DNA of 64,000 bases from a virus (lineage: Duplodnaviria; Heunggongvirae; Uroviricota; Caudoviricetes). A program made the translations under genes and the position numbers. Location: the IMG/VR virus record IMGVR_UViG_3300042691_005779, one strand, 5' to 3'. This document shows positions 1 to 26,652 of the stretch, one piece after another (within the stretch, counting starts at the first letter, position 1; each line of letters begins with the position of its first letter). The notes under the pieces are model-generated. The model saw only the letters and a program-made list of their open reading frames with translations, made no database searches and had not been told where the DNA came from.

Positions 1-903
1 TGAAGAAGTTATAGGGGGTGTTGTAATGCTGAATGCTGGAGGCATGGCAAGTTGTACACTTGTCACTGTTCCTACAGACCAACTTCTGTTTGCTGATAGG
101 TCTTGTGTTAAACCATTGATGCTCAACGTTCTAGTTGTAGGCACTGGTGTATATCCTAATGCAGATACAATATCTCCTTGTGTTACAGGAGTGGCAGACG
201 TAACAAGACCTTTGCCATTCACAGCCACCTTTAAAAAGGTGTTGCTTCCATAGACATTAGGGTTGACAGTCTGTAATGTAAGAGTTGTAGGAGAACCTGT
301 TGTACCAGTTCCTGTTACATCACCAACAATGATGATGACACCAGAAGGAACAGCAATGTTTACAGGAGTAACATTAGTTACAAGTCCTTTTGCATTCACT
401 GTTATTCTTGGAACCTGTGTAGTGGAACCATAAGTTCCTGGGTTAGCATTGACACTAGCCAATGTAAGAACAGCAGACCCTGGGCCACTAGCTGTACCAT
501 CTCCTGTTAGTGCTGTGATATAAGGACCTGATGGTTGGTATGATGTATTATCTAAGCTACCATCCCCCTTAACAAAATCTGAAGAGGTACCACCTGTTGT
601 TATTAATGCTGCAGACTCAATTGAATCTGAAATCTTGAATGTATAGCCATTGCTAAGAATAACTGTGTTCTGGGTTAAGCTACCGCCTAGCTTCACTGGT
701 TGACCAGGAGCTGACTGTATAATTCCATTTTGGAATATATACCCAAGACCAGCATCTCCAAACTTAGCGTCTATTTTTTGTAGAGCAGTTTGAAGACTAT
801 CATTAGTATTGATGCCAGTGTATATTAAATTCTCACCTTCATAGAATACGCAGGTGGCATTTAGTATGACTGGACATGGTTCTGCTGAGCAAGATACATC
901 CAT
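1..903 (-). CDS. Tail fiber-like protein, N-terminal 301 aa; the gene continues beyond the window start
   Basis: Unlisted minus-strand ORF with ATG at 903-901, open through position 1. Own translation MDVSCSAEPCPVILNATCVFYEGENLIYTGINTNDSLQTALQKIDAKFGDAGLGY. Tandem internal repeats (PGTYGSTTQVPRITVNAKGLVTNVTPV; PNVYGSNTFLKVAVNGKGLVTSATPV). The N-terminal Cys-cluster plus YTG..GI.TND..ALQKID module is shared with ORFs 36309..37442 and 36035..36298. Confidence 0.6.
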   Translation of the reverse strand, partial: MDVSCSAEPCPVILNATCVFYEGENLIYTGINTNDSLQTALQKIDAKFGDAGLGYIFQNGIIQSAPGQPVKLGGSLTQNTVILSNGYTFKISDSIESAALITTGGTSSDFVKGDGSLDNTSYQPSGPYITALTGDGTASGPGSAVLTLASVNANPGTYGSTTQVPRITVNAKGLVTNVTPVNIAVPSGVIIIVGDVTGTGTTGSPTTLTLQTVNPNVYGSNTFLKVAVNGKGLVTSATPVTQGDIVSALGYTPVPTTRTLSINGLTQDLSANRSWSVGTVTSVQLAMPPAFSITTPPITSS

Positions 904-945
904 AATATATTAATAATAAAAATGTGTAAGTAATTGATACGCAAA

Positions 946-976
946 TAGGTGTACCTCTTTCTATAGAGTACACCTA
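946..976 (-). terminator. Stem-loop (TAGGTGTACCTCT / TAGAGTACACCTA) between the 1424-aa gene and the fiber gene; candidate intrinsic terminator
   Basis: About 12-bp imperfect inverted repeat, followed on the minus strand by TTTGCG; weak U-tract. Confidence 0.4.
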
Positions 977-1050
977 TATACGCAAAAATAGTTTAAATTA
1001 GTTTATTTTCAATGAGTTAGATAAAACTATGCTACATAATATAGCATTAT

Positions 1051-4000
1051 TTATCTACTTTCTTGTTGTATAGTAACGTCATACTCTTTAGCAAATTCAG
1101 AATCAAATATAGCTAGGTATGTTACAAGTGATTTTGTGAAAGGAAACATCTTCATAGCGTTCTTTATAGGCTGTGCTTTCTTCCTTACATCCTCTGTTGT
1201 TGTATCTAGTTTCATATCAAGCCCTGTTGTTTCCATCCATAAATGGTCCATAAATCTACCAAAGTCTTTGATAAGACCTGCTGCTGGGAATATGCCCTGA
1301 TCTAATAGGGATTGATAGTTCACTGGGTTATAGAAGAATGAAAGCTCACCCACAAACTTATCTATTGTCTTCAATGCAAATCTGTGGAAGTTTTTAGTAG
1401 CTTTATCTTTATCATCATCAGGTGCCATGAAGCCTAGAGATAACATCAATCCTACCAATGCTCCTAGAATAGCTAGTTCCTTAATCTGATTGTGTAGGTT
1501 GTTTCTCACCATGTCAATAAACTCCTCTTTGGTCATGTATAATTGTTGACCTGTAGTTTTCTCATACTCTTCTCTGTACTCTTCATACATATCATTAAGC
1601 TTCCTGATACCATCATCATTCATGTTGATGATGTTAAGCAGGTTAGTTTGCTTATCTTTAAATGAAGAACCAATTACAGCAGCTAGTAGACGAATACGTC
1701 CAATGTCATACTTCTCACCAACAGGTATTCCATCCTCACCAATCTCTACAGAGAAGTCATCACTCACTCTTCTAAACTCAGAGAAACGTGTATCTGTTAG
1801 CTTTGGTATCCAGTTTTTGAACAGCATCATAGACTTGGTCCAGATAGACATAGACATTCTGTTAATGTCACCATCTGACAAGTTACCTGTTGCATTCCTA
1901 GAGATACGTCTAGTCAGCGTGGTAAGTCTTTGTATCTCATCTCTATTGCTTAGATCCAAGCCAGGGATAACTAACTTACCGTCTACTAACTTCTTAGTAT
2001 TAGCAATAGATCTTTTCTTCTTCAACTCCTCAATCTCTGCATCTATCTTAGCTTTGCTTTCCTGAAACTTAGCAGCACTATCATATCTGTCTTTGTACTT
2101 GCTGTTTACAAACTCTCTGATACTCACAATCTTACCATTCTCTACCATCATGTTTTCAAGTAGTGTCAAGAATGTAGCTTTCTCTAATAGTTGTTCTGGC
2201 TTTCTCATGAAGACCATCAAGAAGTCACCTAAGTTACCTCTTGTTAATGTAGTCATACCAGCTCTGTTAAACTCTTCATAAGAAGGGTCATCCTTTAATG
2301 GCATGAATGTGTTTATGAGTTCTGTAAAGATTTCTCTATCTTTCCTGTTATCAAATCTCTGACCAATAAGTTTAATCTCATTCTTTGCAAATTCTCTACT
2401 CTTGAAGTAGTTTCCTGCTTGGGTGGCAATTTGAATATTACCACCAAACATGTTTGCAGCACCAGAGATGAATTCAAATCCAAGGGCCTTTAATTGGAAT
2501 GCTCTGTTAGCAGCATCCATTGTTTTAATTAATGATGTAGGTGTAGGGTTTTCTTCAGGTGAAAAGATTTCCTTACCAGCAAGTCTATTAATACCATTCT
2601 TAACAAAGTTTGTCACCTTGCCCATGTTTAATGGTAAGTCTGCATTATCTACAGTGTATTTCTGATCATACAACAAAGCTCTTAAGAACTCATCATATAT
2701 CTTTGTATTCTCTTCATTACCAGGAAGTTCTTGTGGAGTACCATCTTTTCTAACTATATCACTATATCTAGTGGTGTTAAGATGTCCTTTGAACGACTCA
2801 ATGGTTCTTACTAAGTTTAACTGACCTTCTACATCAGATAGATACTTATACTTCTCTACCTGTTGAATGTATAGAATTAGGTTTTTAAATAAGTCTTCAC
2901 TCACATCAGAGTAGTCATTAACTCCTGTATCAGTTTGTGTGAAGTCATATGTATAGTATTTAGGAATACCATTCTGTAGTTCCCCTGTGATTTCGTTGAT
3001 GCTACCATAACCAGTGTCATCTGTTCTAGCTTGTAAGCTATTATAAAAGTTGCTCATGATAGACAACTTATTATCCCACACAAGCTGCTCAGCCATGCTC
3101 TTTCTAATGAATGGTAGAAAGTTTTTAGACACCATGTTGTTGATGTAACCAATATCCTTTGCCTTCTCATTATACTTAGTAATGAAATTGTATAGCTCAA
3201 GTAGGTCAGGATCTTTCTGAATCTCTAAGTATTCTTCAGAGAACCAGTCATCTTTAGGATGTCTCTTAATAACATAGTTGTTGAAGCCATTGAAGTCTGC
3301 TCTATCTATATCCCATAAGCGTTGTGCCTCAAGTATATATCTTTCTCTCTGTTCATTTTGTTCTTCTTCAGAACCAGAGTAAGAGTTTTTACTGATTCTA
3401 GCAATCTGGTTTTCTAACAAAGGTGCAGCTTCTTTTCTATAAGCTTCTACATCAATGTTATTTAATAACCATTCTTTATCTCCACCTTCCTTAGCTTTCT
3501 CATCTATTTGCTCAAAGAAGTCTTTCTTATACTTATAGATTAGTTTATTTACCAATCCACCTTCTGTAGTCTTTTGGTAAAGCTTTTGTACAAGTTTTCT
3601 TGTATCACCACCTCTAGCAACAAGCTTATCTCTAAGACTCATTAGGACTTCCACTTCTTTAAATGCATCAGCTGCAGCGTTGTTCTTTGCTGTAGATGTA
3701 AGTTTATATAAAACTTGTAATGCACGTGAAGGTAGTTCAGATACACCTCTAAATCTAGCAGCCAATCCTTTGATTACTGCCTCAGCTTTGGTTAATCCTG
3801 TTACAAGGTTTCTTTGTCCTATGTGTTTATCAGCAAACTCTTCAGATGCCTTAGTAATTTGTTTAATAGAAAGTCTAATGAATTTAGACTCTGAATCTAG
3901 TTCTTGTAAGATTTCTTTTCTAATAGCTACGTTCTCTTTTTCTTCTTCACTAGCAGCTGACTCTTCCATGTCTGCTGTATAGATTAAATAACCTATATCA

Positions 4001-5325
4001 TCACCAATGCTTGAGAAGACTTCAGAGAATCTAATGTAGTTATTCATATCATCAGCAAAGTCAGATAGTTCTGCGTTTGTAGAGTCAGTGTCTCTAGCAG
4101 CTCTGTCTTTGTAGATAGTGTTGTAGTCATTTAAGATTCTATCACCATCTCTTCTCATCACCTGGATTACGTCTATGAGAGGTTGTAGGTTACCAGTTCC
4201 TTGCACTAAACGAATGGCTTTTCTGAGAGTATTCATACGTTCAATCTTGAACATACGCTCTCCCTCATCAGTCACCTTCTCTTTAGCATATTCACGCATT
4301 AGTGCATTCAACTTACGTAATACACCATCAAGTGCTTCACTACCAGTGGTTTCTGATTCTTCAGATAATGGAATAAGTTTAAGATCCATAATAGGATCTA
4401 TTTGAGACTTATCTACAGAACCAACTGCCATACCTGTAAGTTCATATCCCTCTTTTGGATTTTGTTTGTCTTTCAATCCAAACTCCATAGAGATGGGAAT
4501 AGCACGTAACATACCAAACTCCTTCACTCCATAGTTATCACGTAACATCTGTTTGTATGTACCAATCTGGATATTGAATGCTCCTTGTTTAAACCAGGCA
4601 ACATCATTACCAGCAATGTACATAAACTTCCAGTCTAGGATGTGAGTCTTACCATTAGGATCTACAGCAAGAAAGTCAATTGTACCAGCCTCTTTATTTT
4701 TACTATCATAAACTATCACCTCAGAGAATACTAATGTATCCTTAGGGAATGTTTTGATTAAGTCAGAATAATAAGTCTCAAGCATGTTATACATTGCTTG
4801 GGTCTCTACATTGAATTTATTAGGTCTGTCTAATGGTTCAGGTCTTCTGGTTCCATCTTTATTGAAGTATCTTTCATGTATTTCTTCTAGATCTTTGTGA
4901 CCAGCAACCCCATAGTTTCTTTTAAGTTCATTGAACTTCTTCTCTGCTTCAGTGAACTGCTTGTTACCAAACCTTTCTTTATACCAAGCTTTAACCCTAT
5001 CAGTTACCCTCTTTGTTATCTTAGTCCAAGTACCATCACTATTCATGATTTCATAGCCATTGTTAGCTTCTTCAGAATCTAATAACAGAGGATCTGTGTT
5101 TGCAGAATCATACTGAACCTTCTTAATATACTTAGGATCTTGTGTTCTAGCTAACTGCTCCTGTATTGCTTTCTGAGGAGCAGTAACAATTTGCTCTACA
5201 TTATCAAGAATATCTTGTGGAACCTCACCATTGTATTCATCCCATAGGTAATGAGCCATTGCCTCACCTCTGAGTTCTACAAGCTGCTTCCAACTGTCTG
5301 AGTTTTTATTTGGGCATGTTGCCAT
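1051..5325 (-). CDS. Giant virion/cargo protein (1424 aa) with an N-terminal RecB-family PD-(D/E)xK nuclease-like domain and a C-terminal transmembrane segment
   Basis: Motifs VFSEVIVYD ... GTIDFLAVD ... HILDWKF ... NIQIGTY (QxxxY) at nt about 4510-4760. A hydrophobic LAILGALVGLMLSLGF segment lies near the C-terminus. The start is 1 nt after the stop of the 4055-aa gene. Confidence 0.6.
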   Translation of the reverse strand: MATCPNKNSDSWKQLVELRGEAMAHYLWDEYNGEVPQDILDNVEQIVTAPQKAIQEQLARTQDPKYIKKVQYDSANTDPLLLDSEEANNGYEIMNSDGTWTKITKRVTDRVKAWYKERFGNKQFTEAEKKFNELKRNYGVAGHKDLEEIHERYFNKDGTRRPEPLDRPNKFNVETQAMYNMLETYYSDLIKTFPKDTLVFSEVIVYDSKNKEAGTIDFLAVDPNGKTHILDWKFMYIAGNDVAWFKQGAFNIQIGTYKQMLRDNYGVKEFGMLRAIPISMEFGLKDKQNPKEGYELTGMAVGSVDKSQIDPIMDLKLIPLSEESETTGSEALDGVLRKLNALMREYAKEKVTDEGERMFKIERMNTLRKAIRLVQGTGNLQPLIDVIQVMRRDGDRILNDYNTIYKDRAARDTDSTNAELSDFADDMNNYIRFSEVFSSIGDDIGYLIYTADMEESAASEEEKENVAIRKEILQELDSESKFIRLSIKQITKASEEFADKHIGQRNLVTGLTKAEAVIKGLAARFRGVSELPSRALQVLYKLTSTAKNNAAADAFKEVEVLMSLRDKLVARGGDTRKLVQKLYQKTTEGGLVNKLIYKYKKDFFEQIDEKAKEGGDKEWLLNNIDVEAYRKEAAPLLENQIARISKNSYSGSEEEQNEQRERYILEAQRLWDIDRADFNGFNNYVIKRHPKDDWFSEEYLEIQKDPDLLELYNFITKYNEKAKDIGYINNMVSKNFLPFIRKSMAEQLVWDNKLSIMSNFYNSLQARTDDTGYGSINEITGELQNGIPKYYTYDFTQTDTGVNDYSDVSEDLFKNLILYIQQVEKYKYLSDVEGQLNLVRTIESFKGHLNTTRYSDIVRKDGTPQELPGNEENTKIYDEFLRALLYDQKYTVDNADLPLNMGKVTNFVKNGINRLAGKEIFSPEENPTPTSLIKTMDAANRAFQLKALGFEFISGAANMFGGNIQIATQAGNYFKSREFAKNEIKLIGQRFDNRKDREIFTELINTFMPLKDDPSYEEFNRAGMTTLTRGNLGDFLMVFMRKPEQLLEKATFLTLLENMMVENGKIVSIREFVNSKYKDRYDSAAKFQESKAKIDAEIEELKKKRSIANTKKLVDGKLVIPGLDLSNRDEIQRLTTLTRRISRNATGNLSDGDINRMSMSIWTKSMMLFKNWIPKLTDTRFSEFRRVSDDFSVEIGEDGIPVGEKYDIGRIRLLAAVIGSSFKDKQTNLLNIINMNDDGIRKLNDMYEEYREEYEKTTGQQLYMTKEEFIDMVRNNLHNQIKELAILGALVGLMLSLGFMAPDDDKDKATKNFHRFALKTIDKFVGELSFFYNPVNYQSLLDQGIFPAAGLIKDFGRFMDHLWMETTGLDMKLDTTTEDVRKKAQPIKNAMKMFPFTKSLVTYLAIFDSEFAKEYDVTIQQESR

Positions 5326-5326
5326 A

Positions 5327-8300
5327 TTAACAGATTTCTTTTAGTATGTTACCAATTTCTTCAGGAGTATATCCTAGCTTCTTTAAAAGCTTACCATCTA
5401 TTTCTAGTTTTGTATAAGCTCTACCATCCTGTAAAGTTAATGTTTCTTGTGGATCTCCAACAAACAAATTACTAACGTCTTGTATTTTCTTTAAAACCTC
5501 AGTGTTAGTAATGTTATTTACATTTTGTTGGAACATAGCAATTGCTTTATCAATAGTGCTAGAACCTATATGAGTTATATATAAACCTCCTGCTTCAACT
5601 CTCCAATCATCTTTGTATATGAAACCTTCTTGATCAATAGCCTCATTTGAAACATACACATTAGCATTAGGATATTCAGGAATTATAAGTTTATATCCTT
5701 CTTTCTCAACCTCTTTATTATCACGTATTATTGTAAACTTTGTTTTCTTTGTAGCTCTTCTTGGAAGTGATATCTTACCTTCAATTACATTTGTACTTTC
5801 ATTAATAGTCTGTGGAGGAGTTACAGTTTCTTTATCTGTACCTGTAGCCTCATCATATGTAAAGAACTCTAATATATCAGCATCTTCTACTTCCCTTGAT
5901 TCTTCAAAACCATTAGGAATTACAGATGTTTTAACTACATTATAAAACTCATTAGCTTTAATACCATCTCCCCACGCATTGATTTGCTTGTAGGTATAAA
6001 CATCTGTGCCATAGAAGTTTTTGGTAGTTAATGGAGATGTTCCATTGTACACCTTCTTGAACAGTGCCTTCTTGATGTAAGAGTAGTCTCCTCTCTTTCT
6101 CATTTCAGCCTTCTCTTCTTTACTTCCAATCTCCCAAGAGTATACAATATAGTCTTTGTTTGCATCACGTGCTAGAGAAGAAAGCTTCATTAGCTGTGGT
6201 ATTCTTCCTAGATTTGTAGCATCTTCAATGGTTTGGTCTTTCATATTCAATGCATTAGCATAGAACCAATCACCATTTTTGTTTTGCTTAAACTTAGCTT
6301 TTCTATATGGAACAATGTCATCATTATTCCAGTTGTTTCTTTGGAACACACCTAAGTTATAGAAGTCATCTAAGTTAGGCATCTTGTTTAATGTAGACAA
6401 TGTCTTATTGTAAACCTCTTCAAAGTCTTCATATGGAAGCAAGCTTGTGTAAGATATAGGACTCTTAGATAATCCTGATTGTAATACAGCAAGTCTTACA
6501 ATCTTACCATACAGAGGATCATCACCAAGGTATTCTTTCAGCTCTCTAAAACCATTAATGATTTCGTTTTGATCAAACACCTTGTTACTCTTATTCTTTA
6601 TCTTAACATTGTTCACTCCACCTTTTGTTGGAGAAGGTAACTGTTCTAGTAACTTAATTGCTTGATTATCAATTAGTTTGTGTCTTTTGTTATTTTTAAC
6701 TTTAACTACAAAGTTGTTGATGTCACGAGCAGCGTTGTTATCTGATAATAGTATTTCTGAAATCTGAGTGTTTAACTTTCTATCTATTTGTACAGCCCAG
6801 TCAAATAAGTCAGCTACAGCTTTCTGTGCCACCTTAATGAAGTCTCCATCTGGTAAGTCTGTATAAGGAAGTAGAACCTTTTCTATTACGCTTCTAACGT
6901 TCTTATTGTCAGATGTAAGTATCTCAGCATAGGCATTTCTTACATCCTGTAATCTGTTAGCCATTACTCCTAAGAAAGAGTTTTCTAATATAGAATCTAC
7001 ACCAGGGATAATGTTACCATTTTTATCTACAGAAGCAATGATTGTCTTTTGAGCTTTGATAAGCTGTTGTTGTTTTTTGAATACTAGGTATGGGTCGTTG
7101 AATGTAGCTGTATCAAAGTTAGACCCTTGAGTTACAGTGAACAACTGACTAGCCATCTTAGCATATTTCAAGAACTCATCTAACATGAATTGTTGCTGAG
7201 CTCTATCATCTTGGTTAGGAAGTTTCTTAGCACCTAATGTTTCTAATAGCTTAGTGTTATTAGGTATAGTGGTAAACTTACTAAAGTTGTAATTCTCACC
7301 TACAGCATACTTTGGATCAGCTTTGATTTCTTTTACAAAGTCATCAATGAATAACCAAGAGTATCCTGAGTTTTCAATCTTACGTAAGTAATCACGTATG
7401 ATTGGTTGGTTCATGAAGTATGCAATAGACTTGATAGGTACACCAACTTTTGCTAGGAACATCCATGTAGATGCTACGTTAGGTGTCATACCTAATTCAA
7501 TAATCCAAGGACCTTTTGCAATGTCCACAAATCCATCAATGAACTGAGATAGGATGTCTGATATTCTTTGTTTGCCTTGGTTATAAACCTGAGAAAGACT
7601 TGGGTATGTTTTACCATTAACTTCTACAGTGTTATAACTTTCAAACTTAATCTTACCATCACCCATCCATTCTCTATCTACATCACTTAGTTTATCTTGC
7701 ATACCATCAAAGTCAACAAAGATGTTGCTTCTTTGGTTAAGAGAATGGTTTGTTTGGTTTACAGCAGCAATACCAATAGCATACTTACCAGATATGAATG
7801 CTTGTCTAAGTCTAGACATAAACCTTCTATCTAACATGTTGCCTGGGTCAGTATAGTCAATCTTAGCCAATCCAAGTTTACCAACTATCTCACCAGATAG
7901 TTTCTTTAATTGGTCTGCTGAGTTAGGAGTAGTTAGAGGCTCAAAGTTCTCTTCACTAGATATAAGGTTTTCAAGAGACTTAAAGTATGCATTCTCTAAT
8001 GATCTTTTGTATAGCTCATAGGTATTCATATCAAGACCCATAGCCTTTATCTTAGCAATAGCCTTTTCTCCTACACCAAAGTAAGGAATAACTCTAAGGT
8101 CACCATTCTTATCTTGGTATATGTTCTTTAGGTATACAGATAACTTATCAATGTCAAAGTCAGAACCTGCTTTCTTAACTAATGCAGATGGGATGATTAC
8201 GCTATCTCCAAACTCTTTAGGTAAGAACTTAGCCACCTTGATGACATCAATAGAGTTTTGCTTCTGTGTAGGGATACGAAACCCTATACCTTTTAATATC

Positions 8301-11300
8301 TCTTGACCTTCATCTGTATTGTTAAGGTAGTCTAACAATTCTTGATCTGACATGTCTATATCAAACCATCTTGATAACATCACCTCAGCAACACGCTGTC
8401 CTTCTTTGTTAGTGTAGAACTTAAGTACATCAGATGTGTATCCTTTCTCACCTGCTTTCTTAACTCTGTTCTCTTCCATAAAGGTAGATGGAAGCTGTAC
8501 TTTCATACCACCATTTACCTTCTGAGAAATAACTTCTCTGTCAGCAATAGAATATAAGATGTTTCTAATCTGTTGGTATGCAGGTGTAGCTTCTAATGTC
8601 ACCTTACCTTCTAAGAAACCAGCTAATGAATCAGCAATGTTGTCATTCACTTCTCTCTTAAGTATCTCTCTACGTAATGTATTAGCTGCTTTAGAGAAGT
8701 CTGTCACTTCAAACTTTTCTCCTACCTTCTTGATTCCCATAGAGTTAAGTAGGTTATTGAAACCTAAACTAATCATTCCCTCAAGAATGTATTGGTTATT
8801 CTTAATCTCATTGTATAATGGAGAAGCTTCTTTTTTCTTATCTTCACTTAGTCTATTCCAAACTTCTACTCCTCCTTTGTAGTCCACAGGCACACCAGTT
8901 TCCATTAAGTCAAGAGTGACTAATTTGGTGATTTGACTACCTCTTGTAACCTCTCCATCTTCTTTAGAAGGTACATCAGATTGAGTAGACATGATAGAGA
9001 AAGGAACGTTTACAAGTTGCTTTTCAGTAAAAGGTGCCTCGTTAAAATTATCATTTTCATCATATGGATCAAATGTTTCTTGAGCTCCCACCTTTCTACC
9101 AGACTTGAATACAACATAGTCAATGTCCTCTCTTTGCATCTTGTTGTACAACTTGATAGCATTTACATCAGGGTTAAACTCATGTAACACTCTGAAGCTC
9201 AATGGATAAAGGGCAAACTTATCTAGTACAATATCATTGTATAATTGACCATTACCTTTATTACCAGATACAATAGGTTTGATTGGAGTGTATGTGCTTT
9301 GAACACCAGGATTACTTTTTAGTAATTCTTTTATTTGTTCTGGGGTAGCACCTGCCTTTACAGCTTTCTCATATCTAATATCAAATCTGTATTGTAGCTC
9401 CTCATCACTATTCCAATCACCACTGCGTATTCTAAAGTTACGATGGGCAGGTAGAGATATAATACCAGAACCATCTGTTTCTTCAAATGGTTCTTCCTCA
9501 GAAGCTAATTCAAATTCTATAGCATAAGGATATTGTCCTACTAATCTATCTGTTACAGATTTTTCCCAACCTTCTTTCTGCCATGTGGCATCTTGATATT
9601 CTTTAGTAAAAGGAACAACATTTGTAATTCTAGTATAAGCAACTCGACCACTTTTATCTGTCATGCGAATTGTTTTACCAACCAAGTCTTCAATGTTAGT
9701 AAGACCATAATCTTGCATCATCCTTTGGATATCAGTATTAGCACGAGTAGTTCTAGTTCTGTCTCCTGAAAGAATTAAATCCATAGTAGACTTACCTGCA
9801 AACTTAGCCTGCATTTTACGTCCACCTTGACCATCTGTAAAGTTTTGTTCAATAGGAGTAAGACTATCAGCTTCTTCTTTATTAATTCCACCTTTACCAT
9901 ATCCAGGCAAATCACCAACTGCTAATACATCAGTCATTGTAACTGTTCTGAAATAGTCTCTTGTGAAGTCTATATATCCTACTTCCCCTTCTTTGAACTC
10001 TTTGTTATATACATTGTTCATAGCAGCATTTAACTCTGAAGAGTTAGCTGCTAATGATTGACGTGGAGATAGGAAGTTCTTAATACGCTTTAACTCATCC
10101 TTGTATTGATATGGATCTGAGTATAATAACTTATGTAGCTCAATGTTATTGATCATGAAGTTGATCTGTAGCATCTCAAGATGCTGCATCAAATCTTCAT
10201 CATCCATAACCTTACCCATAGATAGATTAGTCAAAGTCCAAACGTCTGGCTCTTCCTCATCTATTTTAATAATATCATAGTCGTATAGAGTATTCTTAAA
10301 CTGCCTTGTTTTATCAGCAATGTATTTAGCTAACGCAGCATTTATTCTATCTTCATTTGCAGCATAAACTTCTTCAGAAGTTCCTTCTGCTTCTATAATA
10401 TCATTATGTAATGTCTCACCTAAGATGGCTTTGAAGAAACGTAACTCTTTGCTGTTTCTAACATCACGTCCTTCCTTGGCAAGGTTTAACTCAGATATAA
10501 GGTAGCCTTTGAATATCTCATTGATTCCACCATTTTCATATCCTTCTATTACATTCTCTTTGCTAACAGCATTTTTCATATAAACCATGTGCTCTAGAGA
10601 TGAGTCTCCAGGAACAAGGTTATAGTAGAAACCTGCCAAGTTCATATTGATCTCTTGGATCAAACGTTCTTGGTAAGTAAGCTTACTAGATTGTTTCTTC
10701 TTAGCATTGGTAGAGTTGATTGTACCATCAGCCCAAGCAGGTTCCATTAAGTTTTCTGAATCCTTGATACGATCTCCATTACCAGCAATATCAAACATCT
10801 TGTTTAATATTACAGAGTTTTGAGCAAATGTATCTGTTAATAGATATGCATATGGAGTGTTAGCTAATTCACTAATGTTACTTAGTTTAGACAATGCACT
10901 ATGTAAATTGCTTAGGGCATTCACACCAATAAAGGTTTGTGTAGCATCTCCATTTACATTATAGAATACACTATCAAACTCAGGGTTTTTAATCTTAGCT
11001 TGGATAGTGGCTAGTTCTAATAATCTACCATTGATAGATAGGGTTCTACCTGTTAGTGTAGATACCACCTCAAGATCTGTAAAGCTCTTCTTTATACCTA
11101 ATGTTGCATTAGTAAATCTAGTTTTGTCATCCACATCTAATTGATCTACATCAGCTATGTTAAATGGAATTCCAAGCTTATTTAAGAACTTAACTTGTTC
11201 TTCTAATGTAGCTGTAGGGAAATCTCCAATAACAGCTTTACCTTGATTATTTATCTTAGGAGCATACCCCTTTCTTAAACCACTGTATTCAAAGTATTTA

Positions 11301-14300
11301 GTATCATTCTTTACAGAAGAAACTATACCATTCTTAAACTCATCAGCTAATTGTCTAGCTGCTGTGGTGAAGTTAGAATCTCCCACCTGAACATCACCAT
11401 TGTCTAGGATGTACAAGTTTTTAACTGTAGGGTTTTGTTTATTAAACAATCTCCATAAGGCATTAACTAATCTAAGTTGATGGTCTTCACCTAGGTTTTC
11501 ATAGCTAGGGTCTCCATCATCATATGGTTTTCTTGTAATACGCTCATATAATGTACGATAGTTTTCATCATCTATTGCTAGTTGACGTAAAGCTTCTAAC
11601 ATTTCATCAGGGTTAGTGGCTGCATATGTTCTATTAATGATAGTCATATAAACCTCACTTGTAGGAATTAACTTAGCTCCATTAATAGATGTATATACCA
11701 AGTCACCATTTCTAACTATAGGAATAGTAGAAAGCAATAACTTGATAGCAGAGTTGGCCTTTCTGAAGTTATCTATCTTCTCAGCACTACTGTATGTTTC
11801 ATCTTTACCTTTGTCTTCAAGAACAACTGCTTCATTGTTCTCATCAAACTCAATGTTATAAGATAGTAAGTATTCTTTATGCTTCTCAGTTAGTGCATCC
11901 CAGTTGTTTGTAATCCTACTCCATAGTGAATTAGACTTATCAATGATAGACGCATATCTTTCTTCAGCAGCTTTACCTTCTTGCTCACTTACCTTTCTAG
12001 CTTTCTCAATTAACTTTTCAGCAGCCTTTCTAGACTTAAGTGCTGTCTTTTGTAAAGCATCCTTAAGTTCTTCATTACTTACAGTATTGTTAGTAATGTT
12101 AAATATATTACCTCCTGGTCTAACAACTCTTCTTAAAACCTCATAGGTCATTTGTTGCATGATGTCATTCACCTCTTGACCTGCAAATCCTTTAATACGT
12201 GTTTCACTTTCTCTATCTGCAAATGCATCACTGATATTAATAATACCTGCTTTTGCATAAGATAGTTGTTGACGTGCAGGAAATTGCTTGCTATAGAAAC
12301 CAGTGGTCATTCTCTTGAATAACTCCTCTGTGTTCCTAGCAGCTTGTGGTCCTACAAAGAATGACTTGATGAAGTTAACTAAGTCATTGAACAACTTAAC
12401 AATAAATGGTTGTCCTTTAGCTGGTTTCATTGGAACCTTGCCATATTGTACAAAGTCTCTGAACTCCTCAGCTAATTGTTCTTTAAGTTGGAAGTCAGTA
12501 GCCTCAGAGTATTTGATTGTTTCACCAGTCACTCTGTCTACAAAACTACCAGCTCTATTTCTAAATTCATTAGTAATGTTAATCTTTTCTTCAGGGCTAG
12601 AGAATAGTTTCCATACTGCTTCAAATACCTCATGGTATGCTGTACCCACCTCTGCATTCTCGTATACATAGATGCCACCATTTCTCAACATACCCCAAGC
12701 CTCAATACCACCCAAGCCTCTGATAATGTTCTTAACTCTATATAGAGGAATCATAGGGAAGTTATTCTTCATGAACTCCTCAATCTTTGGCCAATCTTCT
12801 TTCTCAAACTTATCTGTATCTTGCTGAACCTTAACACGAAATGGTGCATCATCTCCCATCTCATTCATCTGTTGTCTAATCAAATCCTCATCAGATGGAG
12901 TAATCTCAGCCTCATCACTTTCTGTAGCAACTTCTTCAACAGGAGCTACAGTAGCTACAGGAGCAGGAGTTGGTTGAGCTACAGGAGCAGCAGCAGGGGT
13001 TGTCAACTTATTATATATAGAGTTAGCTAATAAACTAGTAGCTTTATCAATAGGAAGGCTTTTCTCTGCAGCTAATTTTTCAATTGCTGGTTGAGATACT
13101 AACTTACCACTTGCATCTTGTACTAACGCAACACCAGACTTACCACCACTTGTTGTTAACTCTTCACCATTTACAGTGAATACAATATCTCCATACTGAG
13201 CATTCTTGATTGTGTTAGGTGTTTTACCATCCATTACAAATCCTGCTGTTGGAGAAGGAGCTACAGGAATAACAATGTTCTTCTTAGCCACTGTAGCTTT
13301 ATTAATTACACCAGCATACTTTTCTTTTGTATCTGTGTTTACAAAGTAGATACCTTCTCTATTAGTAGTGGTAGGTGTAGCTTCTTTGTAAGGTACAGTT
13401 AGTGGAGTTTCTTGTCCTGTTCTACCTGACGTAGATAATAAGTAGCTTTGATAGTTCTTCCACTTTTTGGTGGTTATCTTGCCATCAGCACCAACGCTTA
13501 GTATTTGTTCATAAGAGTTATTCCAATTAGATAGTTCAGAGCTAACGTAAGCAGATCTTACGTTATTGTACATAGTTTGTAACTTCTCTACAATAGCATC
13601 TTTATTTGCTTCTATGCTAAGTGGAGTGAATGGATAACTTGTACCATCATTTGATATGTTAAGTTTTAATTCTAGTGGACCATCTGCATTAAACCACACA
13701 CTGTTTGGACTAGCAGCATTTTTAGGACTTCCCCAATAGGTTACAGTACGTAACCAATCAAATAGACGATCAGCCCCTAGACGTTTAGCCTCAGCTGAAT
13801 TAAAGTCTCCTACTTCAAATCTAATAGTAGCTAATCTACTAATTGCTTGATAAATTACCTCAGCTTCTTTTTCACTATGTAACTTGTTCTGTAATGGAAC
13901 ATAACCATTACCTGCTATCAAGAATATTTTACCTAAAGCATTAGCATAACTTGTTGATCCTCTTTGAGCTACATTGTTCAAAGTAGGAATATATATTACA
14001 GGCTTTGTAGCTAGGTCTGATTCTTGAATCAATCCAGCAGCTACAGCACCAGTTCTTACGTTCTTAACAGGATTACCCTGTGCATCTAATACAGTTTGAG
14101 GAACACCAAATGATGCCTCAATCTGGAAAGTGTTTAAGTCTGTAGAGTCTAATGTTTCATTTGCAAACTCAGTGTACTCTTTTATAATTGCATTCTTCTC
14201 AGCTTCTGTTGTATCCTGAGGGAACATACTCTTACCACCAAACTTCTCGCTCCACTGGAACTTAGGATCTGGCATCACTTGAAATACAGCAGTATCAAAT

Positions 14301-17300
14301 GTAGGGTTGTCTAATGTTTTACCATCTACACCCACCACTTTAATCTTGCTACCAACTTGCTCAACCATTACCACAGCAATAGTTTTGCTAGGATCCACAT
14401 CACTAGTTCCTTTGATGTGATTCATCAATCCTTTTAGTCCTAGTTGTTCTTCATTTTTAGCTGTTACATATACACCACGTATTTGTTTTCTATTAGAAAA
14501 CTTATACATGTCAGCTCCAAACTTTATAGAGTTTTGATACCCAGGAAGTTGAGGAGTAGATATAGTGGCTCTAGGAATAATTAACTTGGTCTTTTTATTA
14601 ACCTGCTCATACTCAGCAGCTTTGGCACCAGTTTGTTCGCCTGGTACTTCTGTATTCTGACTATTTAGAATTTCTTCATTTCCCTTCTTAATCTTTTCAT
14701 CCTTAGCCTTATTCTTAAAATAGTTGGTAGCTGCCTTATTATATTCTGCAAAGATAGCATTAATTAACTCAGGGTTGTCTAATGAGTTAACAAACTCTAA
14801 AGCACTTTGATCTTCAGGCTTTTGAACATCTTTGAACTCAGCCTTCTTTAACACAGTGGCAATAGCCTTATCCATGATGTAATTAACATCCTCATTTGAA
14901 ACTAACTGGTCACTTATTTTAAACTGTCTGAACTGTTCAGGAGTAAGGAAAGTTACACTACCATCAGGAAGTTGAACTTCTAGTTCTCCTCCTAAGGTTT
15001 GTGATAGTACGCTTATCTTTGGCTGAACTATTAGTTTACCATTCTGTACCAATACTGGTTCTTCAAGAGTATACTCTTTACCAATCTCTAACTTCTTCTC
15101 AACAATTTTCTCTTTCCCTTTCTTCTTTGTTGGGGCAACTCTCTGTTCAACAGTAACTGGAACTTCTTCCTCTGCACCAAACTCTTCTTCCATTTCCTCA
15201 TATCCTTTAGGATCTTGCTTGATAGCATCATACTCTTGGATATATTTTCTTCTGTTTAATGAAAGGTCAATAACATCAGCTAGTGCAGTTTTAAGATCTT
15301 CTTTAACATCAGATATAACATCCATGCTATTGATTTGATCTAGTACAGTTTGTGTAGCTTGTTTGTTAGGCTCATTACCTGAAATAATACTTTGTAAGAT
15401 TTCAGCAGTATTGATACCAGCTACATTTAAAATAGAATTCACTTGTGGAATACGCACATCATAGTTACCCACCTTGGCTGTGGCATATACAAGTTTGTCT
15501 ATCACCTTATCACTATATAACTTGTTACCTTCTCTATCAGCAATGTTAGAATATCTTTCTCTAACCATAGAATAGGTATCTTCTACCTGCTTGGCTAGAG
15601 CTGATAAGTTGTCAAGTCTTTGAACAAATTGTTCTTTAGTTTCATTAGCATTAACTATACCATCAGCTACTAATTCCTCAAAGCCTACGTTATCCATAGC
15701 TTGAGATTTGTAGTAGGATAGTTCTTGGTTAACAGCATCTATCTTACCATACTTTACTCTAGGCATTAAATAAGATAGAGTGAAGTCATGCTCCATGTCT
15801 TTCTCAGTGAGTTTATCATTAGCTATGATAGCTGCTTGTCTTGCTTTCTGAGAACCAATACCAATACCAACATAGTTAGCTAGGTCTTTTAGAACAGCTG
15901 CAGAGTTTGTTTTATTCAATGCCTGTATTGCTACATCTGTATTTCTACCTCTTTCACCACCATATCCTAAAAATCCTCTTTCTCCTAATTCACCAGATTT
16001 ACCAAACCCTACTCTTGTTCTTCCTTGCTCATCTTGGTATGTGCCTACATATCCAGCTTGTTGTAATCCACCAGACAACGCACCTATGAGGATGTTTTGC
16101 ATACCCTCTTTGGTATTCAATGTTTCATCTATACCATATTCAACTATGTTTCCCATTACACTGTTTGTGTTATTTAGGAAACTAGAAACATCTTTTTTAT
16201 TTCTATATGCTCTATTGAAATAATCATTAACACCAGTTTGAATAGCAAACTGTGCACCTTCTTCAAAACCTTCTGAAGGAGATACAATAAGTCCACCAAT
16301 GTTTCTGATGCCACTACCTATTTTACCAAGTCTTGTCTTTGGTAAGTATTTAGACCATTCTCCACCAACTACTGATTGCTCAATGTCATTGATCAATGCA
16401 GCATCTGCTTTCTTAGAAGAACCCAAAATCTTTGGAAGTTGAATGTAGTTTGTTGCTGTGAGTAGCAATGAGTTCATTCCCCATGTAAAGTTACCTATCT
16501 TATCTGCATAAGCGTTGATAGCATCTAGATCTTTACCTGTAGGAGTTTCACCATACTTATCTCTATATTCTTCGATAGCATTGTTTCTAAAGGTGTTCAT
16601 GTTCTGAAGACCTTCTAATCCTGCTTCACCAAATGTACCTGTGGCAGATGTAATAATTCTGTCTGAGTTTCTCAATACAGAAGCTGCTGGTGACTTTAAA
16701 TACTTCTGTGCTACAGAGTTAAGTGCACCATCAAACGCAGCAAACTTTTGTAACCTAGGAGCTGCAGCCATAGATTCTTCTACAGCTGTTAGTGCTTCCA
16801 GACCTTGACCTGCTTTGACTAACTTACTAGTTACACCCAATGCCTTTAGGGCTTTGCTCCACGCAAAACCACCTCCTATTGTACCTAATGAATACCCTAA
16901 GTTTTTAAGGATACCATCAGAAAAGAAGTTAGCTGTCAATAAATAATCAGGGGAATACCAGTTAGCATCAGTTTGCTTCTGGGTCATATAGTTAGGAAGT
17001 ATATCTTCTAATGCCTTGTATGAATCATCTAACTTCCTATTAATCTCATTATCAAACAATGAAGAGAATCTACCATCACGTACCATAGCACCTAAGCCAT
17101 AGACAGTACCAGCTGTACCAGAGATAAAACTATTGGTAGCTGTGCCTACAAACTTTAAGGCACCATTTCTCCACTGCTCTAGTGCACTCTGTTGTTGTGC
17201 ATACTTTTCTTCTAGATCAGTTTCATATGGTCTACTGCTTTTATATCTATTGCCAATATATATTGAAGAAACAGGAAGTTGAGGAACTTTAGTTTTTCCT

Positions 17301-17494
17301 GGATCAGTATTGTTCCATATATCTTGAGGAGACATATCACCTCCAACAACACCCACCTTGCTATCAGTTCTAGAGAAATCAAGACTGATATCTGGAAAAT
17401 TTGACTGACCACCCAAGTTAACAACTTTTGGTTCAGTGGTAGGCTGCGTAGCATTAACACCTTCTCCTAAATTAATTATTTTTTCTTCTGGCAT
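5327..17494 (-). CDS. Giant virion-packaged RNA polymerase-like protein (4055 aa), crAss-like vRNAP type multidomain protein
   Basis: A 12.2-kb uninterrupted ORF. DxDxD-type motif KKAGSDFDIDKLSVY at nt about 8150-8164, as in the double-psi-beta-barrel virion RNAP of crAss-like phages. A low-complexity PTPAAAPVAQPTPAPVATVAPVEEV linker separates an N-terminal block of about 1450 aa. Confidence 0.65.
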   Translation of the reverse strand: MPEEKIINLGEGVNATQPTTEPKVVNLGGQSNFPDISLDFSRTDSKVGVVGGDMSPQDIWNNTDPGKTKVPQLPVSSIYIGNRYKSSRPYETDLEEKYAQQQSALEQWRNGALKFVGTATNSFISGTAGTVYGLGAMVRDGRFSSLFDNEINRKLDDSYKALEDILPNYMTQKQTDANWYSPDYLLTANFFSDGILKNLGYSLGTIGGGFAWSKALKALGVTSKLVKAGQGLEALTAVEESMAAAPRLQKFAAFDGALNSVAQKYLKSPAASVLRNSDRIITSATGTFGEAGLEGLQNMNTFRNNAIEEYRDKYGETPTGKDLDAINAYADKIGNFTWGMNSLLLTATNYIQLPKILGSSKKADAALINDIEQSVVGGEWSKYLPKTRLGKIGSGIRNIGGLIVSPSEGFEEGAQFAIQTGVNDYFNRAYRNKKDVSSFLNNTNSVMGNIVEYGIDETLNTKEGMQNILIGALSGGLQQAGYVGTYQDEQGRTRVGFGKSGELGERGFLGYGGERGRNTDVAIQALNKTNSAAVLKDLANYVGIGIGSQKARQAAIIANDKLTEKDMEHDFTLSYLMPRVKYGKIDAVNQELSYYKSQAMDNVGFEELVADGIVNANETKEQFVQRLDNLSALAKQVEDTYSMVRERYSNIADREGNKLYSDKVIDKLVYATAKVGNYDVRIPQVNSILNVAGINTAEILQSIISGNEPNKQATQTVLDQINSMDVISDVKEDLKTALADVIDLSLNRRKYIQEYDAIKQDPKGYEEMEEEFGAEEEVPVTVEQRVAPTKKKGKEKIVEKKLEIGKEYTLEEPVLVQNGKLIVQPKISVLSQTLGGELEVQLPDGSVTFLTPEQFRQFKISDQLVSNEDVNYIMDKAIATVLKKAEFKDVQKPEDQSALEFVNSLDNPELINAIFAEYNKAATNYFKNKAKDEKIKKGNEEILNSQNTEVPGEQTGAKAAEYEQVNKKTKLIIPRATISTPQLPGYQNSIKFGADMYKFSNRKQIRGVYVTAKNEEQLGLKGLMNHIKGTSDVDPSKTIAVVMVEQVGSKIKVVGVDGKTLDNPTFDTAVFQVMPDPKFQWSEKFGGKSMFPQDTTEAEKNAIIKEYTEFANETLDSTDLNTFQIEASFGVPQTVLDAQGNPVKNVRTGAVAAGLIQESDLATKPVIYIPTLNNVAQRGSTSYANALGKIFLIAGNGYVPLQNKLHSEKEAEVIYQAISRLATIRFEVGDFNSAEAKRLGADRLFDWLRTVTYWGSPKNAASPNSVWFNADGPLELKLNISNDGTSYPFTPLSIEANKDAIVEKLQTMYNNVRSAYVSSELSNWNNSYEQILSVGADGKITTKKWKNYQSYLLSTSGRTGQETPLTVPYKEATPTTTNREGIYFVNTDTKEKYAGVINKATVAKKNIVIPVAPSPTAGFVMDGKTPNTIKNAQYGDIVFTVNGEELTTSGGKSGVALVQDASGKLVSQPAIEKLAAEKSLPIDKATSLLANSIYNKLTTPAAAPVAQPTPAPVATVAPVEEVATESDEAEITPSDEDLIRQQMNEMGDDAPFRVKVQQDTDKFEKEDWPKIEEFMKNNFPMIPLYRVKNIIRGLGGIEAWGMLRNGGIYVYENAEVGTAYHEVFEAVWKLFSSPEEKINITNEFRNRAGSFVDRVTGETIKYSEATDFQLKEQLAEEFRDFVQYGKVPMKPAKGQPFIVKLFNDLVNFIKSFFVGPQAARNTEELFKRMTTGFYSKQFPARQQLSYAKAGIINISDAFADRESETRIKGFAGQEVNDIMQQMTYEVLRRVVRPGGNIFNITNNTVSNEELKDALQKTALKSRKAAEKLIEKARKVSEQEGKAAEERYASIIDKSNSLWSRITNNWDALTEKHKEYLLSYNIEFDENNEAVVLEDKGKDETYSSAEKIDNFRKANSAIKLLLSTIPIVRNGDLVYTSINGAKLIPTSEVYMTIINRTYAATNPDEMLEALRQLAIDDENYRTLYERITRKPYDDGDPSYENLGEDHQLRLVNALWRLFNKQNPTVKNLYILDNGDVQVGDSNFTTAARQLADEFKNGIVSSVKNDTKYFEYSGLRKGYAPKINNQGKAVIGDFPTATLEEQVKFLNKLGIPFNIADVDQLDVDDKTRFTNATLGIKKSFTDLEVVSTLTGRTLSINGRLLELATIQAKIKNPEFDSVFYNVNGDATQTFIGVNALSNLHSALSKLSNISELANTPYAYLLTDTFAQNSVILNKMFDIAGNGDRIKDSENLMEPAWADGTINSTNAKKKQSSKLTYQERLIQEINMNLAGFYYNLVPGDSSLEHMVYMKNAVSKENVIEGYENGGINEIFKGYLISELNLAKEGRDVRNSKELRFFKAILGETLHNDIIEAEGTSEEVYAANEDRINAALAKYIADKTRQFKNTLYDYDIIKIDEEEPDVWTLTNLSMGKVMDDEDLMQHLEMLQINFMINNIELHKLLYSDPYQYKDELKRIKNFLSPRQSLAANSSELNAAMNNVYNKEFKEGEVGYIDFTRDYFRTVTMTDVLAVGDLPGYGKGGINKEEADSLTPIEQNFTDGQGGRKMQAKFAGKSTMDLILSGDRTRTTRANTDIQRMMQDYGLTNIEDLVGKTIRMTDKSGRVAYTRITNVVPFTKEYQDATWQKEGWEKSVTDRLVGQYPYAIEFELASEEEPFEETDGSGIISLPAHRNFRIRSGDWNSDEELQYRFDIRYEKAVKAGATPEQIKELLKSNPGVQSTYTPIKPIVSGNKGNGQLYNDIVLDKFALYPLSFRVLHEFNPDVNAIKLYNKMQREDIDYVVFKSGRKVGAQETFDPYDENDNFNEAPFTEKQLVNVPFSIMSTQSDVPSKEDGEVTRGSQITKLVTLDLMETGVPVDYKGGVEVWNRLSEDKKKEASPLYNEIKNNQYILEGMISLGFNNLLNSMGIKKVGEKFEVTDFSKAANTLRREILKREVNDNIADSLAGFLEGKVTLEATPAYQQIRNILYSIADREVISQKVNGGMKVQLPSTFMEENRVKKAGEKGYTSDVLKFYTNKEGQRVAEVMLSRWFDIDMSDQELLDYLNNTDEGQEILKGIGFRIPTQKQNSIDVIKVAKFLPKEFGDSVIIPSALVKKAGSDFDIDKLSVYLKNIYQDKNGDLRVIPYFGVGEKAIAKIKAMGLDMNTYELYKRSLENAYFKSLENLISSEENFEPLTTPNSADQLKKLSGEIVGKLGLAKIDYTDPGNMLDRRFMSRLRQAFISGKYAIGIAAVNQTNHSLNQRSNIFVDFDGMQDKLSDVDREWMGDGKIKFESYNTVEVNGKTYPSLSQVYNQGKQRISDILSQFIDGFVDIAKGPWIIELGMTPNVASTWMFLAKVGVPIKSIAYFMNQPIIRDYLRKIENSGYSWLFIDDFVKEIKADPKYAVGENYNFSKFTTIPNNTKLLETLGAKKLPNQDDRAQQQFMLDEFLKYAKMASQLFTVTQGSNFDTATFNDPYLVFKKQQQLIKAQKTIIASVDKNGNIIPGVDSILENSFLGVMANRLQDVRNAYAEILTSDNKNVRSVIEKVLLPYTDLPDGDFIKVAQKAVADLFDWAVQIDRKLNTQISEILLSDNNAARDINNFVVKVKNNKRHKLIDNQAIKLLEQLPSPTKGGVNNVKIKNKSNKVFDQNEIINGFRELKEYLGDDPLYGKIVRLAVLQSGLSKSPISYTSLLPYEDFEEVYNKTLSTLNKMPNLDDFYNLGVFQRNNWNNDDIVPYRKAKFKQNKNGDWFYANALNMKDQTIEDATNLGRIPQLMKLSSLARDANKDYIVYSWEIGSKEEKAEMRKRGDYSYIKKALFKKVYNGTSPLTTKNFYGTDVYTYKQINAWGDGIKANEFYNVVKTSVIPNGFEESREVEDADILEFFTYDEATGTDKETVTPPQTINESTNVIEGKISLPRRATKKTKFTIIRDNKEVEKEGYKLIIPEYPNANVYVSNEAIDQEGFIYKDDWRVEAGGLYITHIGSSTIDKAIAMFQQNVNNITNTEVLKKIQDVSNLFVGDPQETLTLQDGRAYTKLEIDGKLLKKLGYTPEEIGNILKEIC

Positions 17495-20344: not shown

Positions 20345-20420
20345 AATACAAAATTAATTTAAAATATTAGAATTACCAAGAGCTATAACAAATTTTAGTA
20401 ATTCACTATAACTGAATTAG

Positions 20421-23132: not shown

Positions 23133-23152
23133 ATCAAACGTTTATATGTGGT

Positions 23153-25783: not shown

Positions 25784-26652
25784 TATTTGTAAGAGATTTG
25801 AGCAGGTGTAATAATGAATTGAGAAACTATATGAGCTTCAGAACTGTTATCAAGTATGTGTCTCACCTTGAGGTCTTTAGCTCTCAATGGTTCTTTCTTA
25901 AATGATCTCTTTCCATAATCCATATTTGGTTGATTTACAATCTTATCTATAGATAAAGACTCACAACTTGTCATGAATAAAGGTATAGATTTGTTCTTAA
26001 CAAGACTCCAGAATGTATTGTATTGATAGAAGTTATCACTCTTTGTATACATAATGGTTTTACTATTAGTATTGTACATAGGGTAGGTTAAGTATGCACT
26101 TAGGTTGTTGATAGGCTTTGGTACCAATTCTAATACACCTGTAGACTGTTGTCCATTGTATAGAACAGCTTTGTTAAACCATTGATTATCAACTTCTATC
26201 CTAGCATTGTCATTGAACACACCATCTGGAATAGGTAGATAGTTGTACACTTTACTGTAGTCTTTCACGTTTTGTAATATCTCATCATAGCTTTGGTAGC
26301 TAAAAGGATATTCAATTATATATGGTTCTATATTACCATAGAACTTATTATAGTTTTGTACATCTGTCAGATGTCTCCAAATAGATCCTGTGTTACATGT
26401 TGTATATGTCAAAGCTGCAAGCTCCTCTTTAGTAGCTGTGCCAATTGAAACCTCTATAAAGATTCCATTGCACTTGCCTGCAGATGTTATAATAACACTC
26501 TCAATAGAGTCATCAACACTAACAGTATAACCATCAATTAAGTTTTGCTTGGTTATATTGGTGCCTAGAACATTGCCTTCATTATCAGAGATATTGAAAG
26601 GTCCAGTTCTACCACCAGAGCATGTTAATCTTATTATTACTGTCTTTGCCAT
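25783..26652 (-). CDS. Fiber-associated protein with an N-terminal TGPFNI domain (289 aa)
   Basis: The N-terminus MAKTVIIRLTCSGGRTGPFNISDNEGN...GYTVSVDDSIESVIITSAGKCNG is paralogous to the N-terminus of ORF 35472..36011. It lies immediately downstream of the 1748-aa fiber gene. Confidence 0.5.
   Translation of the reverse strand: MAKTVIIRLTCSGGRTGPFNISDNEGNVLGTNITKQNLIDGYTVSVDDSIESVIITSAGKCNGIFIEVSIGTATKEELAALTYTTCNTGSIWRHLTDVQNYNKFYGNIEPYIIEYPFSYQSYDEILQNVKDYSKVYNYLPIPDGVFNDNARIEVDNQWFNKAVLYNGQQSTGVLELVPKPINNLSAYLTYPMYNTNSKTIMYTKSDNFYQYNTFWSLVKNKSIPLFMTSCESLSIDKIVNQPNMDYGKRSFKKEPLRAKDLKVRHILDNSSEAHIVSQFIITPAQISYK

Follow-up and report, generated by a model that had tools for sequence, protein, structure and literature searches.

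A predicted RecB-type nuclease head on a cargo-type protein encoded beside the virion RNA polymerase gene of a distant crAss-like phage

The IMG/VR virus record IMGVR_UViG_3300042691_005779 (64,000 nucleotides, nt), a stretch of caudoviricete DNA referred to below as the window, encodes on its minus strand a 1424-amino-acid (aa) protein whose N-terminal part is predicted to form a RecB-type PD-(D/E)xK nuclease domain. The gene directly follows that of a virion RNA polymerase, and the explanation that best accounts for the observations as a whole, which we consider probable, is that the product is an RNA-polymerase-associated cargo protein composed of an N-terminal leader, a RecB-type nuclease head and a helical chassis. 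The source phage is a distant crAss-like phage of an environmental lineage. In the human gut few phages are as abundant as the Crassvirales, whose relatives are also numerous in the environment. How infection is started by the protein cargo that crAss-like phages eject is the question on which the predicted nuclease bears, and a nuclease predicted to process DNA ends and to accompany the polymerase, as appears to be the case in 682 sequence clusters, is an obvious candidate for template preparation or for an attack on host DNA.

The kind of protein is itself not new. The first-pass annotation, made from the nucleotide sequence and its open reading frames (ORFs), had supposed that a nuclease domain on an injected giant protein was undescribed for this phage group. 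This supposition has to be withdrawn: Yutin et al. (2021) had already reported that in some crAss-like phages large proteins of the transcription block bear a PDDEXK domain, the report is repeated in a 2023 Crassvirales review, and such proteins, gut crAss-like ones included, are listed in BFVD and UniProt as “PD-(D/E)XK endonuclease-like domain-containing protein” or “Exonuclease.” Full-text searches returned no functional study of the PDDEXK domains in large crAss-like proteins. The window protein is a divergent environmental member of this known, biochemically uncharacterised protein kind, and the additions made here are modest, namely the orthology of the carrier to phi14:2 gp65 and crAss001 gp49, the exchange of its head, the variable cassettes, and the strength of the conservation at the catalytic site.

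Nuclease fold and active site

The four ordered motifs from which a RecB-family nuclease had been proposed at 4510-4760 are present inside that interval, at 4555-4731, and read VFSEVIVYD (aa 199-207), GTIDFLAVD (aa 214-222), HILDWKF (aa 228-234) and NIQIGTY (aa 251-257). None of 5000 shuffled versions of the protein contained the ordered motifs under a strict regular expression (1% under a loose one), and when the window was scanned in six frames for ORFs of 100 aa or more, the 1424-aa protein alone gave a strict match. The region was modelled with AlphaFold2 from a 25-sequence alignment of aa 48-400 (predicted local distance difference test, pLDDT, 81.8; predicted template modelling score, pTM, 0.81). 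According to the model and a fold search with it, an alpha-beta-beta-beta-alpha-beta restriction-endonuclease-like core is present. E202 lies on strand 1, D217 (of GTID) on strand 2 and D231-W-K233 on strand 3, these strands being consecutive, and Q253-x3-Y257 falls within the next element after strand 3, the helix 244-265. The top matches of the aa 48-400 model were the RecB-type nucleases MGME1, AddA, Cas4, RecE and RecB. Foldseek against BFVD listed first the crAss-like giant proteins and then dozens of phage PD-(D/E)XK nucleases and exonucleases.

Profile matches point in the same direction. In PHROGs, the window protein matches phrog_298 “exonuclease” weakly (E = 3.6e-4), and the same family is matched by 23 of the 25 family members (best E = 3.3e-9). 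Three of the 25 relatives also match Pfam PDDEXK_1 (PF12705), below the cut-off (best E = 1.2e-3). Several points weigh against the assignment. Pfam gave no relevant match when the whole protein or aa 1-342 was searched as a single sequence, phmmer and profile searches of the domain and the body against PDB sequences found nothing significant, and the assignment rests on a model from 25 fairly similar sequences and on weak profile matches. The missing single-sequence Pfam and PDB sequence matches are also what speaks for the view that the motifs are a chance resemblance and that the region is not a PD-(D/E)xK domain at all. We give this view hardly any credit, given the outcome of the 5000 shuffles, the return of nucleases of this family by fold searches in two libraries, and the consistency of the phrog_298 matches among family members. 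Taken together, the fold search, the family profiles and the conserved catalytic residues support the RecB-family identity claimed at the first pass, and the predicted domain is best described as a PD-(D/E)xK nuclease domain of the RecB/Cas4/MGME1 type.

The homologue set of the full 1424-aa protein comprises 585 sequences, and all six catalytic residues are invariant in the 122 homologues of at least 51% identity. An exhaustive profile search recovered the domain in 682 representatives of 50% identity clusters (E <=0.001), almost always inside proteins of 1400-5500 aa; a further large homologue search, for which the domain by itself was the query, returned just 9 fragments and contributed little. 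Conservation was counted in the best 150 of the 682 representatives, using only the rows with a residue at the given position. E202 is kept in 139/147, D217 in 147/147, D231 in 141/148, K233 in 146/148, Q253 in 139/147 and Y257 in 141/147. We regard the fold, and an active site under selection, as established. From the intact active site we infer that the head is a Mg2+-dependent DNA nuclease.

It should be said on the other side that a few of the best 150 representatives are without some catalytic residues. Substitutions at D231, Q253 or Y257 in a few representatives, together with an asparagine in place of the first acidic residue in a possible copy of the domain in crAss001 gp47, would fit a nuclease fold that is catalytically dead or only binds DNA, for example as a holder of the genome end or a tether of the polymerase, and inactivated PD-(D/E)xK domains are common among large proteins. 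Such a state is very improbable for the window protein, in which the six catalytic positions are intact; they are kept at 94-100% in about 147 representatives that share less than 50% identity, and without selection on catalysis such conservation would be difficult to account for.

The predicted domain has the core fold and the motif order (acidic residue, hhhD, (D/E)xK, QxxxY) of RecB, AddA, AdnA, MGME1, Cas4, RecE, Exo5 and Dna2, but its sequence identity to these nucleases is only 9-17%. Unlike them, the window protein has no helicase partner domain and no iron-sulfur cluster, and its nuclease domain is embedded in what appears to be a virion cargo protein. Membership of the Cas4 or AddB type was considered and ruled out, as a four-cysteine iron-sulfur cluster is impossible in a protein whose entire 1424 residues include a single cysteine (C4). 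Profile comparison revealed no relationship of the domain to crAss001 gp70, the PD-(D/E)xK exonuclease of the replication block, or to the exonuclease-like ORF 34037-35287 of the window, and the putative virion nuclease thus appears to belong to a separate lineage. A second nuclease domain was sought in the 4055-aa polymerase protein of the window and in phi14:2 gp65-gp68, and none was found.

The carrier protein and the adjoining polymerase

The terminase, portal and capsid proteins of the window match crAss-type PHROG families. The terminase is closest to that of Leptolyngbya phage Lbo-JY46 (38.6%), followed by the Epsilon-group Cellulophaga phages (32.6%) and then by gut crAss-like phages. 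When 50,697 phage records were searched with megablast and tblastn, no DNA match was obtained and the protein matches were only weak, being limited to cr108_1 and one unannotated faecal contig; the reverse search with the cr108_1 domain returned cr108_1 itself as the sole match. Beyond crAss-like records, the phage collection yielded no homologue of the window protein.

The gene upstream of the nuclease-protein gene had been taken for a virion RNA polymerase gene at the first pass. This reading is borne out, and the polymerase is of the crAss type, as indicated by its DFDID motif and its match to phi14:2 gp66. By tblastn, polymerase aa 2800-3500 match phi14:2 g066 “Catalytic RNA polymerase subunit” (E = 5e-10) and a total of 137 phage records, mostly of crAss-like and related Bacteroidota phages. 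The motif GSDFDIDKL has counterparts in crAss001 gp50 (GSDFDVDKL) and phi14:2 gp66 (1361-DFDID-1365), and alanine substitutions in the gp66 motif abolish activity according to the phi14:2 gp66 study. By BLASTP, aa 111-298 and 1497-1715 of the polymerase protein match crAss001 gp47, and aa 2782-3368 match gp50/gp66. On the strength of the DFDID motif and of the gp47, gp50 and gp66 matches, the 4055-aa protein is, as judged from its sequence, a fused crAss-type virion polymerase polyprotein; fusions of such polymerase proteins in some phages were noted by the phi14:2 study. At roughly double the length of phi14:2 gp66, the protein has a gp47-like N-terminal half followed by a gp50/gp66-type polymerase. 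Neither an HExxH motif nor a nuclease-like domain was found in it. N4-like phages (Schitoviridae) likewise eject a giant packaged polymerase with accessory proteins, as is proposed here, but their polymerase class differs from the two-barrel DFDID type of the window. An N4-like identity was ruled out by this motif and by the phi14:2 gp66 match.

The association of the two genes is widespread in the family. GSDFDIDKL is encoded upstream on the same strand in 67 of 72 IMG/VR loci, and in nearly all of those among the 72 that have an upstream giant ORF (counted when it ends no more than 60 nt from the ATG) the spacer is -1 to +12 nt. In the window, the 1-nt spacer reported at the first pass is confirmed (TAA, one base, ATG); the two genes may accordingly be translationally coupled, as was proposed then. 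One homologue, P0186 (5544 aa), is a natural fusion of the two genes that are adjacent in the window: a single reading frame holds both the polymerase, with AGSDFDIDKL at aa 3115, and the nuclease protein, whose domain spans aa 4229-4521. The polymerase homologue of cr108_1 (L001, MT774385, 1830-13420) is split over two ORFs of 2967 aa and 798 aa. Its alignment to the window polymerase breaks at aa 3112/3113, at the start of DFDID, with a gap of about 290 nt between the ORFs, a pattern that points to an intervening element or to a catalytic site that is split.

The family profile of the window protein aligns to the entire 1714-aa protein of cr108_1 (E = 5e-118), to crAss001 gp49 at aa 456-1194 (E = 1.7e-25) and to phi14:2 gp65 at aa 445-1404 (E = 1.2e-18), these E values being optimistic as they come from small local databases. 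In phi14:2, crAss001 and cr108_1, as in the window, the homologous carrier gene directly adjoins the polymerase gene in the order polymerase, carrier. In phi14:2 and crAss001, the carrier gene lies directly downstream with a spacer of 1-2 nt, and the carriers are similar in size (1421 aa for gp65, 1349 aa for gp49). They also share the homologous helical body, including a hydrophobic helix followed by an acidic cluster. By position and sequence, the 1424-aa protein is therefore taken to be the counterpart of gp65 and gp49, both of which have been termed RNA-polymerase-associated cargo and were seen in virions by mass spectrometry (Bayfield 2023; Drobysheva preprint; record annotation). Because its body is homologous to these two virion-detected proteins, packaging and ejection of the window protein may be inferred reasonably strongly by orthology, and its delivery into the host is plausible. 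To this extent the first-pass suggestion of a cargo or ejection protein is plausible.

The hydrophobic segment that had been placed at the very end of the protein exists, but its position was misjudged. The stretch LAILGALVGLMLSLGFMAP (mean Kyte-Doolittle 2.1) lies about 120 residues upstream of the C-terminus, at aa 1284-1302. In the AlphaFold model it belongs to a long helix whose region is predicted with confidence, and in its aligned counterpart in phi14:2 gp65 (residues ~1283-1320) a hydrophobic stretch again precedes an acidic cluster. The segment could allow the ejected protein to insert into a membrane.

Alternatively, the protein may not be delivered by the virion, or its nuclease may act late in the cell, in recombination, replication restart or concatemer processing. 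This is in keeping with the several PD-(D/E)xK nucleases per crAss-like phage, for which roles in reproduction are presumed (Yutin 2021), and with the outcome for the helical body (aa 401-1424), for which a solved structural relative, such as could prove ejection, was not found. Chassis homologues are, however, present in the virions of two cultured crAss-like phages by mass spectrometry, the gene is located within the late cargo block and is at times fused to the virion polymerase, and the domain shares no profile relationship with the gp70 exonuclease. We consider a late or non-virion role improbable.

Exchangeable heads and the role of the nuclease

The N-terminal ~450 residues differ among the carriers. 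In phi14:2 gp65 they form an HExxH Zincin-like protease head (identified by the motif and a weak SprT-like match), which has also been reported in the literature (Drobysheva preprint). Unlike the window protein, neither gp65 nor gp49 has a nuclease head. The enzymatic head thus differs between lineages, being a predicted nuclease in the window and a Zincin-like protease in phi14:2 gp65. Among the closest known parallels is cr108_1 (QOR58988.1, 1714 aa), in which the same kind of domain is part of a giant protein adjoining the virion polymerase. The cr108_1 nuclease is at aa ~390-730 (Pfam PDDEXK_1, E = 8.6e-4) and the protein is the second-best BFVD structural match of the window domain, but within the domain it is only ~25% identical to the window protein. 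crAss001 differs in that a candidate nuclease, tentatively assigned, is found in another cargo protein, gp47, where the match is weak (9.4 bits) and draws its support chiefly from the motifs AGEVDIL, IYDVKT and QLSAY, with a sub-threshold PDDEXK_1 match in addition.

Most homologues are longer (1600-5500 aa), and the window protein is a minimal form with no N-terminal cassette. In most relatives (BLAST; homologues P0003-P0120 and P0130-P0277), a hypervariable cassette of 200-1700 aa is present between leader and nuclease. Query aa 1-40/50 align to the first 40-50 residues of the homologues and the remainder aligns past inserts of 200-1000 aa, which places the insertion point after aa ~40-50 (window ~5185). 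Recognisable pieces of the cassettes are ART-PolyVal, Kinase-PolyVal, MuF_C, histidine phosphatase, GNAT and a GHKL ATPase (HATPase_c_3). Most cassettes are without a Pfam match, and Pfam searches of 21 long relatives returned ART-PolyVal and HATPase_c_3 in one member each. Many relatives also have a module of ~200 aa that is absent from the window protein.

As for the role of the nuclease head, the functions suggested at the first pass (degradation of host DNA, processing of the incoming genome, countering of host defences) are conjectural, and the following sequence of events is proposed. The 1424-aa protein would be produced late and packaged in the capsid together with the polymerase; on ejection it would enter the host before the DNA or along with it, as its orthology indicates. 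There, the nuclease head may trim or resect the entering end of the linear phage genome, and the resection would expose single-stranded DNA (ssDNA) for a virion polymerase that prefers it and/or for the annealing of terminal repeats. We put this end-trimming role forward tentatively, as a possibility well short of an even chance. It is suggested because the closest structural relatives are end-dependent exonucleases, because the sole free DNA end at entry would be that of the phage genome itself, and because the nuclease is constant in the lineage while the neighbouring cassettes vary. A further reason is that the polymerase transcribes ssDNA well and double-stranded DNA (dsDNA) poorly, without a shared promoter motif: in the cited phi14:2 study, gp66 transcribed ssDNA and denatured DNA well and dsDNA poorly in vitro, and no upstream motif common to the phi14:2 early transcripts was detectable.

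Other observations weigh against end trimming as a general function. No nuclease match was found in phi14:2 gp65-gp68, so end resection would not be a general role, and the nuclease is not a universal cofactor of the polymerase, given that the three phi14:2 cargo proteins are without it. In crAss001 gp49, neither a nuclease head nor any recognisable N-terminal domain was found. Interchangeable heads and polyvalent cassettes fit a host-directed effector equally well as a polymerase cofactor. This leads to the main rival explanation, in which the nuclease head is an injected effector directed against the host or a competitor, with host DNA, plasmids, co-infecting phage DNA or the nucleic acids of defence systems as its targets; like the enzymatic modules of polyvalent injected proteins, it would not serve phage transcription. 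We regard this as possible, and give it about the same weight as the end-trimming role.

Polyvalent proteins, as defined by Iyer, Burroughs, Anand, de Souza and Aravind (2017), are giant, probably injected and multidomain, as are the members of the window protein family. The ART-PolyVal, Kinase-PolyVal, MuF_C, GNAT, histidine phosphatase and GHKL ATPase domains that adjoin the nuclease in longer homologues are hallmarks of injected conflict proteins (Iyer et al. 2017), the first three being signature domains of polyvalent proteins, and the replacement of the head by a Zincin-like protease in phi14:2 gp65 implies that the nuclease is dispensable for polymerase function. Several domains per protein are seen in the family, but the window protein has one recognisable enzymatic domain, so that the family counts as polyvalent and this member does not. 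A full-text search found no paper that treats crAss-like cargo proteins as polyvalent proteins. The effector explanation, on the other hand, fits less well with a nuclease that stays constant in the lineage while the cassettes vary, a pattern that suits a core function over an arms-race module. Furthermore, the relatives of the domain are end-dependent exonucleases and an intact circular host chromosome has no ends, and the only DNases listed for polyvalent proteins are ParB-like (Iyer et al. 2017).

A more far-reaching reading of the predicted cargo nuclease is that it is the missing cofactor of early transcription, making the ssDNA template on which an apparently promoter-independent polymerase starts transcription, and that the chassis is a general delivery platform on which heads are exchanged. 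We think this combination unlikely. If the cofactor part were true, resection could also bare the terminal repeats for circularisation; if the platform part were true, the heads delivered would include nuclease, protease, ADP-ribosyltransferase, kinase and others. Independently of this reading, the family shows a common cargo chassis combined with different enzymes from phage to phage, and this opens a way of cataloguing injected effectors.

Feature coordinates and other observations

Table 1. Positions in the window of the nuclease-protein gene, its predicted parts and the upstream polymerase gene.
Feature	Positions	Strand	Basis or remark
Gene of the 1424-aa RNA-polymerase-associated cargo-type protein	1051-5325	minus	ORF list and translation
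N-terminal leader, aa 1-47, conserved, MATCPNKNSDSWKQLV...LWDEYNGEVP	5185-5325	minus	BLAST against homologues
Predicted PD-(D/E)xK (RecB/Cas4/MGME1-like) nuclease domain, ~aa 60-305; core ~aa 176-301	4411-5148	minus	
Catalytic motif block, E202 to Y257	4555-4731	minus	motif positions; AlphaFold2 strand/helix assignment
Three-helix linker after the nuclease domain, ~aa 306-400	4126-4410	minus	
Large, mainly alpha-helical body (chassis), aa 401-1424	1054-4125	minus	common to phi14:2 gp65 and crAss001 gp49
Lone strongly hydrophobic helix, aa 1284-1302, then acidic DDDKD cluster	1420-1476	minus	Kyte-Doolittle scan
Gene junction: polymerase stop codon TAA, a single base, start codon ATG of the nuclease protein	5323-5329	minus	sequence read
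Gene of the 4055-aa virion RNA polymerase polyprotein, upstream of the nuclease-protein gene	5327-17494	minus	
DFDID catalytic motif (AGSDFDIDKL), polymerase aa 3112-3116	8147-8161	minus	motif search

The exonuclease-like ORF 34037-35287 (minus, 416 aa) is located near tail and structural genes. It matches phrog_704 “DNA repair exonuclease” (E = 2.7e-44) and also phrog_284 “exonuclease,” with no Pfam match, and is a candidate for the structural-block nuclease (PDDEXK_a) known from crAss-like phages.

Between the polymerase gene and the structural genes, three proteins of ~900 aa are encoded (17501-25783), for which no PHROG or Pfam match was found. The adjacent 289-aa protein (25783-26652, minus) matches phrog_15100 “virion structural protein,” and beside it is encoded a 1748-aa protein (26664-31910, minus) that matches phrog_37948, also “virion structural protein” (E = 1.8e-100).

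Downstream of the nuclease-protein gene, window positions 1-1050 contain no convincing complete ORF. Three contigs (L004-L006; ENA ERZ27248034, ERZ27248008 and ERZ27247984) encode the identical 1424-aa protein and stop 40-300 nt past its stop codon, and several IMG/VR contigs likewise end shortly downstream of the nuclease-protein gene. These ends hint at a genome terminus, or at a repeat that breaks assembly, just past the gene.

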